Under the pieces are notes generated by a model, which saw only the letters and a program-made list of their open reading frames with translations, was not told the origin of the DNA and ran no database searches. Positions 4,171 to 51,490 of a DNA stretch of 64,000 nucleotides are shown one piece after another; within the stretch, counting starts at the first letter, position 1, and every line of letters starts with the position of its first letter. The position numbers and the translations under genes were made by a program. Source of the stretch: Eledone cirrhosa (taxonomy: Eukaryota). Where the stretch lies: assembly GCA_964016885.1 (NCBI GenBank), contig OZ024747.1, positions 42,470,001-42,534,000 on the forward strand, given 5' to 3'.

Positions 4171-4344
4171 AAACCTCTGAAGAGTACCTGAGTCTCATGT
4201 GGTTTAATCATAATCGATAGTTTGTCTTCGATGATCGAATATATTAATTAATTTAAAAAACTTTTTTTTCTTTCTTTTAATGATCGATTACATAGATCGA
4301 CTTTTAGCCATACTATCCAGGTATGAAATAGCGCTATAAGGTTT
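4171..4344 (+). ncRNA. Type I hammerhead ribozyme with a very long stem II/loop
   Basis: Stem I AAACCU/AGGUUU; CUGAAGA at 4177; stem II GUACCUG...CAGGUAU enclosing ~127 nt; GAAA at 4325; palindromic stem III UAGCGCUA; UA cleavage site at 4337-4338. Confidence 0.7.
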
Positions 4345-4884
4345 CACTTACAATTCCATCTGTGTACATATTCTTCTATTGAATATATGGCCTTTTGTCT
4401 CTATATCATCATCATCATCATTTTACGTCCGCTTTTCCCTGCTTGCGAGGGTGGGACGGGAACTGATTCTGGCTTCATTTCTACAGTTGGATGCCCTTCC
4501 TAACACCAACCTCATTTACAGTGAGTGCTGGGTGCTTTTTTTTCCGTGGCACCTCCACATCCACTTTACAGTGTGGGCTGGGTGCTTTTTTTTTTTTGCC
4601 ATGGCACCTCCTTGACCACTTTGCAGTGGAATGATAGGGACCCCAGTCCTATCATCTCATTTCTACAGCTGAGTAAATTGGAGCAATGTGAAATAAAGTG
4701 TCTTGCTCAAGGAAACAACACATATATAAACATGAATATATGATAAACACTAATACAAGTATATAAGTGTTTGTATTGCAAATGACCAAGTTAGCTAGAT
4801 TGAAAAATACTAATTAATACAGTTTGCCTGTCTCGATTTAAAATAATAAATCAATAAAAACAAACCAATATTGGCAATAGTTGT

Positions 4885-4973
4885 GATACCTGGACAAATT
4901 TAAATTTCAAAACTCAAATCTGTTTCGCAACAATAAGTGAAAATTTCCATTTCTGTGCTCATCTGCAGGTATC
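4885..4973 (-). ncRNA. Type I hammerhead-like motif, U4A core variant (left arm copy)
   Basis: Reverse-complement counterpart of 5396-5484 with the same CAGAUGA core. Confidence 0.6.
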
Positions 4974-5395
4974 CAGAAATTGGTATGTTTCACTTCAAAA
5001 TACTTAGGAAGACTGAGAGAAATGTGTTGTTGAACGCACATGTGTCCCAGCGTCTAGCCAGTCCTATACTCATGCTGCCAGAAATAGCAGCCGGTTTTAA
5101 ATACAAACACTTATATACTTGTATTAGTGTTTATCATATATTCATTTGTATTACACAGCTCAGAAATATCTCTTTCTTTGAGCTATTTAATTGTAAAAGA
5201 CTGTTTGAGTTTATAACTCTATATATAGTATTCTTGGCTCCATATGTTGAGCTAAATTTTTTAGTCCCATAAAACCGGCTGCTATTTCTGGCAGCACGAG
5301 TATAGGACTGGCTAGACGCTGGGACACATGTGCGTTCAACAACACATTTCTCTCAGTCTTCCTAAGTATTTTGAAGTGAAACATACCAATTTCTG

Positions 5396-5484
5396 GATAC
5401 CTGCAGATGAGCACAGAAATGAAAATTTTCACTTATTGTTGCGAAACAGATTTGAGTTTTGAAATTTAAATTTGTCCAGGTATC
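5396..5484 (+). ncRNA. Type I hammerhead-like motif, U4A core variant
   Basis: Stem I GAUACCUG/CAGGUAUC (8 bp); CAGAUGA in place of CUGAUGA; imperfect long stem II; GAAA at 5443; 11-bp stem III (with G-U pairs); GUC cleavage triplet at 5474-5476. Confidence 0.6.
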
Positions 5485-5731
5485 ACGGCTATTGTCAATA
5501 TGGGTTTGTTTTTATTGATTTATTATTTTAAATCGAGACAGGCAAACTGTATTAATTTAATTAGTATTTTTCAATCTAGCTAACTTGGTCATTTGCAATG
5601 CAAACACTTATATACTTGTATTAGCGTTTATCATATATTCATTTGTATTACACGGCTCAGAAATATCTCTTTCTTTGAGCTATTTAATTGTAAAAGACTG
5701 TTTGAGTTTATAACTCTATATATAGTATATT

Positions 5732-5772
<41 letters not shown>

Positions 5773-48453: not shown

Positions 48454-48503
<50 letters not shown>

Positions 48504-51106
48504 CGAAGGAAATGTGGTAAGGAACCAGGTGGACCATAACGCACCAAAGTACTCAATACTTAGGGTAGTAGAGCGGGTAATAGGAACAAGTAAGACCCCG
48601 ACGGCTGAGCTCAAGCCGTTTCGACGGCTAATTCTGGACTAATTCCGTCCAGAATTAGCCGTCGAGGTCTTACTTGTTCCTATATATATATACTCATACA
48701 TACACACACATATACATATGCATGCATATATACATACACACAGACACATGTATGTATGTATGTATTTCTTGGTGGCAATTTTATCAAACAAAAATATTAC
48801 ATTTGAAAAAAACGCAACATTTTGAGAGATTAAATATAAATTTATCTAAAAAATAATCTAGAATCAAAATTTAAGTTTTCGCAGTAAAATTTCACAAAAT
48901 ATAATTAGAATTTATATAGAAATTAATGTTGTATTCTCTAAATAACATTGATGAATTATTTATTAATCTTTTCATGTTCTGGAGTAAGCTACAACATAGC
49001 TTGAAGTTAGGTAATAGAAATATCAATGTTTCTTGATTATAATATTCTCTTTAATTATATTTGTATAAGATTTATTATTACAATAAATATTTCATTCTAT
49101 ATTATGACATTTTGTAGAAATCTTTATTTTGAGAGAAAAATACACACACACAGATACATATATGTATAAAAGTAAAATATTTGTTTAATATTTGTTTAAG
49201 GAGTTTAACACATTTGAATTGTCGAGATTTTTGTTTGATTTTCTTTTCTTCAAATTATTTAGATTTTAACTTAAGATCATCTATTAAGAAATCTAAATAT
49301 CTTCTAATGGTTTCTGGTTTAGGCACAAGCCCAACAATATTGGGGGAGGGGAAAATCGATTAAATCAACCCAGTACATTACTGGTACTTTATTTTAACAA
49401 CCCCGTAAGGATGAAAGGCAAAGTTAACCTCGGCGGGATTTGAACTCAGAACGTAAAGGGCGTAGCTCTATGCCACAAAGCATGTTGTCCGATGCTCTAC
49501 CAATACTTCCAATCCACAGCAATTCTTCAATGACATAATATGAAATGTGATATTATTACATTTATATTTACAATCAATGATAATTGTATGTGTGGGTGAC
49601 AATATTCACAGATTGTAAACATACTGGATCTAATGAGAGTAAACTGTTAATGTATGTCCAATAAGGTATTTAGAATTTTGGTATGAAATGGGATACTGAA
49701 GCCAGAAGTTATCTGAATATATTTCCCATATATCTTATTACTGTTTACCATGACGAGGATACTGAAGAAATCTGAAACATAAGGAAGAATCAACAATAGC
49801 CACCCACAGGCCAGATGGGCACGGGAAAATATTTATGCTCAGTAAAGATAACTCAAAGAATAAATTTGAGTGATATTACATTAGTATTTAACAAAACAGA
49901 ACCACAGCTTGTTTCCACGAGGATTGTTCAACAGAGATTATACAAGGACGGTTACAAGAACTGAAAACTTCAGTAGACTATTGCAATTTGTAAATATCAA
50001 CTGTCAGGAGTGAGTTTGTTTGTGCAAGAATAATAAAGACACTGGACAACGAATCAATGGCAGAAAATGGGACTTTTTAAAGAAAAATTCCTAAGTAGTC
50101 AATGGACAAAACAAATTTTCTTTCTAAATAGAGAAAACTTCATTAGAAGTGGAAATCATATTGATTGAACCAATTGAGAATTCCTATAAAAGGAAGCTGT
50201 ATGTTTTGGGTATGTTGGTATTTTGTACCACATCAAGTAGTGGTGGTATGTTTGTGTCAGATAAAGTTTATTTTAAGTCGTATGTATGTGTGTAAGTTTG
50301 TATGTATGCATGTATATGTGTGTACATGCATTGTTATCACCGTCATGGGTTAGATGGGTTTTCATGCACTGAAGCTAAATAGGTTAGGTGACAATGTCTT
50401 GCTCATATGCTCCGTATTTGGCTTGGTTTCTATGGCTGGATCCTTTCCTAATGCCAATGTGTATGTATAATTACTATTACAATGTGTAATTACCTGACAC
50501 TGGTTTGTGGCAAGTAGTTGCCAATATATTTGGAAATAATCCTTTCATCTACCAAGATGTTGATGTCATATCCCTTTGATCTTGAAACAGCTCAGTGATA
50601 ATTTATTGTAACAATTAAATTCCTTAACCTTTAGCATAGTGTTGGCGACATAAAGCACCATAGATTAATCTCCCCTTAATACATAATGCAGTGTTAAGGA
50701 AAACAGCTCATAAAAATTACTAGCATGCTAAAGGTTAAATGACATGAGCAGCACATCAATCTCACCTGAACATTATTGACAATGTGTGACAACAAATGTA
50801 AAAAATCAGACTGTCTAATGAAATAAATGAGATTCAAAGTTTGTGAACACGACAAAAGCTTCCGAAGACTTCCATAAGAAGCTTATATGAGTATTATGTT
50901 TTCATTATTATTATTATTATTATTATTATTTGTTTTGAATATGGTGAGTTAGGTTATTTTAAGAGATTTTTTTCATGAATATATGTAATGTTTGCATCTC
51001 ACATAATCTTACCTCAACATGTGACACCCATAATTGTGTCCATGCTTTCAACATGTTTCACTATATGGGAATGTATATATATGAGAAAATGTTCATGAAA
51101 TATATG

Positions 51107-51176
<70 letters not shown>

Positions 51177-51316
51177 ACCAAAAGTTTATATGGTTCGTTG
51201 ATTATTCAACGAATTCAATTTTACAATAGATTAGAAGCACTCGACAGCAATTTATCTGGAGTATCTATAATATTATTCAAAATATTAATAAATGAGAAAT
51301 AATATCATAACCAAAG

Positions 51317-51387
51317 TATATATTTTATTATACATATTTCAAAGGTACAATGGTGTTTCAGTACGTTTTCATCAGATAAAATATATA
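51317..51387 (-). ncRNA. Minimal type I hammerhead ribozyme (left copy of an inverted pair)
   Basis: Reverse complement of 51420-51490. Confidence 0.78.
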
Positions 51388-51419
51388 AAAGATAGGGCTA
51401 TGTTGTATAACCAATCTCT

Positions 51420-51490
51420 TATATATTTTATCTGATGAAAACGTACTGAAACACCATTGTACCTTTGAAATATGTATAATAAAATATATA
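51420..51490 (+). ncRNA. Minimal type I hammerhead ribozyme (right copy of an inverted pair)
   Basis: 12-bp stem I; CUGAUGA at 51432; stem II AAACGUAC/GUACCUUU (one mismatch); GAAA at 51467; UAUGUA; UA. Same family as the 11446 and 13663 motifs. Confidence 0.78.

Follow-up and report, generated by a model that had tools for sequence, protein, structure and literature searches.

Nine hammerhead ribozyme motifs in 64 kb of the Eledone cirrhosa genome as probable 3' ends of Penelope-like elements and protein-free units

The stretch of Eledone cirrhosa DNA analysed here is 64,000 nucleotides (nt) long (assembly GCA_964016885.1, contig OZ024747.1, positions 42,470,001 to 42,534,000 of the forward strand; hereafter the window, whose own numbering we use) and carries a dense set of type I hammerhead ribozyme motifs. 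The nine that an initial annotation had placed in it were all confirmed at their positions, eight as complete hammerheads and the ninth, at 48580, as the 3' half of one. The nine motifs amount to seven insertions, because those at 4885 and 5396, and likewise those at 51317 and 51420, each belong to one insertion with an inverted 5' piece. Very probably they are the hammerhead-bearing 3' ends of these seven insertions, five from families of Penelope-like elements (PLEs) that bear an open reading frame (ORF) and two from protein-free units. Six motifs fall in Penelope-like families (A, C and E) and three, at 4171, 4885 and 5396, in protein-free elements (B and D); the five families, of which A comprises subfamilies A1, A2 and A3, bear out the proposal of at least four. 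The insertions and their hammerheads are as follows.

4148..4386, plus strand: family D, copy of a protein-free unit of 607 nt, truncated at the 5' end (family alignment and descriptor)
4171-4344, plus strand: family D hammerhead with its core at 4177, a 141-nt stem II and GAAA at 4325; helix III is palindromic and cleavage is predicted after 4338
4726..5099, minus strand: family B, inverted 5'-truncated piece, one insertion with 5100..5728; hammerhead 4973-4885, core CAGAUGA
5100..5728, plus strand: family B, a partial and a full 497-nt unit head to tail, with (TA)n at the end
5396-5484, plus strand: family B hammerhead, core CAGAUGA (U4A), long helix III, predicted cleavage after 5476
11373..11553, plus strand: family A1, 3' end of a Hydra-type PLE; minimal hammerhead 11446-11510
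13635..13796, minus strand: Hydra-type 3' end of family A2, with a minimal hammerhead at 13723-13663 and more tail sequence at 13818-13957
42531..44379, plus strand: family C, 5'-truncated Hydra-type element; GIY-YIG frame to 43019, 3' untranslated region (UTR), minimal hammerhead 44276-44330
48503..48682, minus strand: 3' end of family E, whose hammerhead keeps its 3' half (GAAA at 48622, C17 at 48600) but has lost the 5' box through truncation and inversion
51151..51396, minus strand: family A3, minus-strand arm; minimal hammerhead 51387-51317
51393..51540, plus strand: family A3, plus-strand arm, one insertion with the minus arm; minimal hammerhead 51420-51490

A descriptor that allows stem II up to 170 nt finds the eight complete hammerheads (4171, 5396, 11446, 44276 and 51420 on the plus strand; 4885, 13663 and 51317 on the minus strand), and the shuffled control that had been proposed separates them clearly from chance: the same descriptor gave a mean of 0.017 hammerheads, and at most 1, in 60 block-shuffled versions of the window. 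Descriptors limiting stem II to 60-70 nt return seven matches, with shuffle means of 0.04 and 0.03, and miss the motif at 4171, which family alignment shows to be intact and whose 141-nt stem II is closed by 7 bp. The motifs have the layout that defines a type I hammerhead (a C3-A9 box, GAAA, an NUH site, and a set of three helices of which helix I is open), their stems are paired, and six carry the canonical core. The motif at 48580 had been called a core-deleted relic, which suits a minus-strand 3' half that has lost its 5' box, as have 49 of the 53 3' halves of this type among all fetched loci. An interim reading of 4171 and 48580 as non-hammerheads was overturned by the family alignments. 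Helix III is a short 8-nt palindrome in five of the eight complete motifs and a palindrome of 10 nt in 4171, but 4885 and 5396 have a 13-bp helix III in the minimum free energy fold. A scan of the window against Rfam turned out negative, with no hammerhead family (112 matches at E<=1), and since the Rfam models catch none of the window motifs, these are probably unannotated. A candidate at 11990 was rejected: it has CUGACGA and GAAA, fails every descriptor, and has relatives without the motif. At 12300-12345 a short stem precedes GAAA and (TA)n, with the 5' box absent; this may be a further decayed hammerhead end.

The link to Penelope-like elements is most direct in family C, where the window hammerhead at 44276 lies 1.26 kb past a GIY-YIG frame and where 16 of the 19 related loci have the hammerhead placed after the endonuclease. 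A single ORF joins the reverse transcriptase (RT) to a GIY-YIG endonuclease at the C terminus in C, with open frames of 856-894 amino acids (aa) in four copies fetched for long frames, and in A1, with a 662-aa frame at locus L267, which reads hammerhead, ORF, UTR, hammerhead with a period of 3,691 nt; in E, A2 and A3 this ORF is present as fragments only. The C protein has RWK at 39, DKT at 122, CxCX5C at 754 and one CxxC only at 852, with no CCHH; A1 has DKT and CxCX5C, and E has CxCX5C. An endonuclease frame lies upstream on the same strand (in family A at about 1.4-1.7 kb) in at least 14 of 30 long A1 loci (picked for a 1-kb upstream match, and length-chosen A samples do not give fractions of all copies), in 6 of 30 A2 loci, in two of four extended A3 loci, with one further A3 locus having an ORF after the hammerhead, and in 8 of 30 E loci. 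The A1 copy in the window is 91% identical to locus L274, whose endonuclease sits 1.45 kb upstream. The family A pattern has 12,509 exact genome matches and none in the control, complete family E hammerheads (U3-A8 core, position 7 free) number 4,567 with none in the control, and one endonuclease query gives 58,151 first-look candidates. A protein search finds 896 relatives, almost all of them without a name. Insertion into (TA)n and a tandem or inverted structure are present in A, C and E. What had been said of Penelope-type hammerheads, high copy number and a (TA)n context is supported. By these sequence features, families A, C and E appear to be autonomous PLEs with Hydra-clade motifs, and the motifs at 11446, 13663, 51317/51420 and 48580 their 5'-truncated ends.

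Families B and D have the form of closed units. B has a period of 495-502 nt, with dimers, a trimer, and tandem and inverted pieces, and it has two 3' ends 80 nt apart, like a PLE tail. With five duplicate loci excluded, 41 B alignments extend to the start of the unit, which is preceded by the element's own 3' end in 31, by (TA)n in 1 and by other sequence in 9; by eye, the nine are mostly diverged 3' ends or inverted pieces, and none has a common foreign upstream sequence. PLE protein matches in B loci are scattered in position and strand. D has a 607-nt period, known from 15 loci only, and none of these 15 holds a Hydra ORF; its 3' part has 56 exact genome matches, as a dispersed family. The likeness between B and D is weak (29 nt, E=0.13). 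Both show the PLE insertion signature, and both fit non-LTR (long terminal repeat) retrozymes as far as their sequences go; it is likely that they were moved by a Penelope-type RT. At two loci (L272:2083-4752 and L273:5444-8527) a B trimer is fused directly to a truncated C ORF, in a block present twice, inverted; the junction may reflect template switching by the C enzyme, or simple insertion.

The hammerhead sits near the 3' end of these elements, and the insertions adjoin (TA)n and include tandem and inverted truncated pieces. Drawing on published PLE work, we propose that the element's endonuclease would nick (TA)n and that reverse transcription would start near the 3' end and usually stop or fold back early, such that most insertions would leave little beyond a hammerhead and a tail in the (TA)n run. 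Frangieh et al. (2024) describe PLE target-primed reverse transcription that starts inside the RNA and cuts AT-rich DNA, and this explains the tail. Solitary minimal hammerheads, in thousands, and opposite-strand pairs were likewise described as truncated PLEs by Cervera and de la Pena (2014, PMC4209133), who report no cleavage by a single minimal motif and low cleavage by dimers. Because cleavage by minimal hammerheads would require dimers in tandem transcripts, solitary and opposite-strand copies are likely inert; in opposite-strand pairs each transcript would hold one sense motif, inside a long hairpin, which would preclude dimerisation in cis. The B hammerhead, unlike the minimal motifs, could fold alone, with an A4 core that is predicted to be slow. 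B and D copies longer than one unit would require a circular or a multimeric template, and the data fit either. The dense hammerhead set is a known by-product of PLE amplification.

Family B departs from the canonical CUGANGA core: position 4 is A in the two window copies and in all 100 of the matches listed. A relaxed pattern finds 1,403 hammerheads of the B superfamily, 587 of them with A4. In a midpoint-rooted tree of 81 copies (positions 4, 6 and 7 masked; excluding copies that were too short or that ended within 200 nt in (TA)n), a 100/100 branch splits 16 U4 rows from 65 A4 rows; being the canonical state, U4 is assumed to be ancestral. The covariation that had been suggested as a check is present, as compensatory stem changes in the B superfamily and as the U3-A8 core pair in E. 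Stem I pairs 1, 6 and 7 switch between the U4 and A4 lineages (A-U/G-C, C-G/U-A and U-A/A-U), and within A4, among 53 copies, stem I pair 2 is U-A in 44, C-G in 4 and U-G in 3, while helix III pair 4 is A-U in 29, G-U in 18, G-C in 2 and mismatched in 4. Where the surrounding sequence is of the A4 type, position 4 holds a different base in 40 copies: C in 32, U in 6 and G in 2. C6 occurs in addition (A4+C6) in 19 short-branched rows closely related to the A4 rows; these need not form one clade, and using the window copy as query has over-sampled them. The search patterns fix several core positions and therefore cannot show conservation of those positions. An alternative register for the B core (CUGCAGA) was ruled out by homology with the U4 sister lineage and by a contiguous 8-bp stem I. 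The initial annotation was right that 4885 and 5396 both carry U4A. Rather than two decayed copies, the pair is a single insertion, and A4 is the norm throughout the lineage to which it belongs.

How ordinary is the window? One minimal-hammerhead pattern has 81,698 matches in the 3.0-Gb genome, against 162 for a reversed control; it averages 1.75 matches per 64 kb and has 5 in the window (P=0.03). By descriptor, forty 10-kb stretches at round coordinates hold 12-13 matches and the 200 kb flanking the window 5-6 (the ranges are by descriptor). At about 27-30 motifs per Mb, the density is high beside the published counts consulted. The window, at about four times the sampled average and with average flanks, lies in the upper tail among some 46,800 windows. 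The motif set is not special to this locus; it is ordinary in a genome overrun by PLEs. Four matches in the 40 sampled stretches (L154, two in L158, and L179) belong to a different abundant hammerhead family, whose core is U3-A8 and whose helix III is a 10-nt palindrome.

Several observations weigh against our reading of the set as ends of Penelope-like elements and related units. Neither full-length protein matched Pfam; the Hydra label rests on motifs; and the elements measure about 3.7 kb or more, against the <3 kb typical of Hydra. Among the fetched loci no ORF is linked to B or D, and no common 3' end turned up. The window is also denser than average, with 8 motifs against 1.8 expected (from 17 matches in 600 kb; Poisson P=0.0006), an excess that stays at P=0.011 when six insertions are counted instead of motifs. 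Such density might be expected if the locus were a selected cluster of domesticated ribozymes regulating nearby transcripts. We find this hardly credible: the flanks match the genome average, a 1% tail of all windows comprises hundreds, and each of the motifs is a typical representative of some dispersed family, with 86-98% identity to copies at other loci. Nor does any motif lie between the exon matches of the clathrin light chain gene, the only gene identified in the window (plus strand, 15238-36030, with matches at 15238, 23232 and 35809), and the suggested seeding through introns accordingly finds no support here. It is also possible to see all the motifs outside family C as an independent, high-copy mini-element system of short non-coding units, as the initial annotation did when it tied 44276 alone to a Penelope ORF. 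That description holds for B and D, and most A copies are indeed short, with only 3 of 30 unselected A loci sharing more than 600 nt upstream with another. But 44276 stands alone in this respect only within the window; longer copies of A, with variable 5' ends, extend into RT and endonuclease sequence, and E does likewise, so that A and E are truncated 3' ends of ORF-bearing elements. These ORF-linked copies already contradict the mini-element system for A and E, and we judge it improbable.

A separate question is what the A4 ribozyme does. The A4 core is predicted to weaken self-cleavage, leaving it slow. One tentative reading is that a single retrozyme lineage kept multiplying after the loss of U4, with its hammerhead helices under selection, and later came to tolerate C4 and C6. 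On another, about which we are equally doubtful, the A4 lineage would be catalytically dead, its fold kept for recognition by the RT or a host protein and its copies produced by genomic tandem read-through rather than RNA circles. Pairwise mutagenesis of a type III hammerhead speaks for a dead ribozyme, in that all single and double CUGA-turn mutants had low activity except a C-G swap (PMC9901934), as do the bases found at position 4 in the A4 context (A in hundreds of copies, otherwise mostly C) and the C6 subgroup. Of insertions starting near the B cleavage site, only 2 of 9 adjoin it, too few to decide. Against a dead ribozyme, among the natural variants described by Perreault et al. (2011, PMC3088659), which include U3-A8, A6C has low activity and a viroid with U4C is still infective, which implies that slow cleavage may suffice; and helix III, important for monomer activity, is long and still varies in a compensatory manner within the lineage. 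We found no published hammerhead with an A4 (U4A) core in a search limited to running text, so an earlier report is possible; 'U4A' is absent from the main text of Perreault et al. (2011, PMC3088659), and Cervera and de la Pena (2014, PMC4209133) mark 'exceptional core changes' in their figures.

The families resemble several known systems. As described by Craig et al. (2021, PMC8557442), Hydra-clade PLEs, including Hydra-1_Obim of Octopus bimaculoides, share with ours the C-terminal GIY-YIG, RWK, DKT and CxCX5C, a canonical hammerhead near the 3' end, (TA)n targets and tandem or inverted truncated copies. The window-type elements have longer 3' UTRs, of 0.6-1.7 kb, and are present in far greater numbers, and the hammerhead tabulated for Hydra-1_Obim differs, in unaligned form, from those in the window. 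The supplement of that paper lists an octopus Hydra family with a (TA)n preference and a hammerhead, and its authors consider hammerhead function in endonuclease-bearing PLEs unclear and suggest that the motifs might merely parasitise them. Among the papers listed on hammerhead ribozymes and octopus it was the only relevant one; the main text of a 2026 paper on Octopus vulgaris repeats mentions neither hammerhead nor ribozyme. Minimal metazoan PLE hammerheads (PMC4209133) are likewise mostly solitary; where they pair on opposite strands they lie 100-700 bp apart, their helix III is palindromic, one genome holds several families, and a U3-A8 core variant occurs. Our count of at least 81,698 compares with about 9,000 reported there for Xenopus tropicalis and 2,000 for Schistosoma mansoni, by differing search methods. 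B and D share with non-LTR animal retrozymes (PMC7229834; Li et al. 2026, bioRxiv 10.64898/2026.07.22.740005) the protein-free type I hammerhead unit. Such retrozymes occur as monomers, dimers and trimers, are thought to be PLE derivatives, and span a reported 51-972 bp, within which the 500-610 nt of B and D fall. B differs in its lineage-wide A4 core and D in its 141-nt stem II; both have PLE-style inversions and tails and are known here from DNA alone. The total number of motifs is larger in the axolotl (126,247), whose genome measures 28 Gb. Elsewhere in the genome, L175:6165-7877 repeats a unit of about 311 nt in tandem, in six copies on both strands; every unit includes a compact canonical hammerhead, and the array resembles a classic retrozyme.

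Often nested next to the insertions described here is a further PLE family with a Neptune-like CxxxxCxxC linker (L085:3458-4540, and L086); the Neptune-like ORFs adjoining L018 and L039 were considered as partners and rejected as neighbouring insertions. The rest of the window holds a non-LTR retrotransposon on the minus strand (457-3493), with an RT frame of 752 aa and a zf-RVT frame of 279 aa; a 130-nt unit in three near-identical copies (12809-13199); and a 48-nt minisatellite of 22.6 copies derived from a dispersed repeat (59349-60431). The sequence directly after the first clathrin light chain exon recurs at 16840-17084 and 17842-17933.

Much of this pattern is already known: reports of ORF-linked and truncated PLE hammerheads date from 2014, and those of hammerheads in Hydra elements from 2021. 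The novelty is modest: motifs at very high density, a 141-nt stem II in one retrozyme, and an A4 core in a retrozyme lineage. The sister lineages of family B, with a canonical and an altered core in one 500-nt element, make the role of cleavage in mobility directly testable. If the A4 lineage did keep multiplying after losing U4, the genome supplies a natural allelic series (U4, A4, C4 and A4+C6) within one element for asking what hammerheads do. If the A4 ribozyme is dead, the PLE hammerhead fold would be a recognition structure for the mobilising enzyme, not a catalyst.

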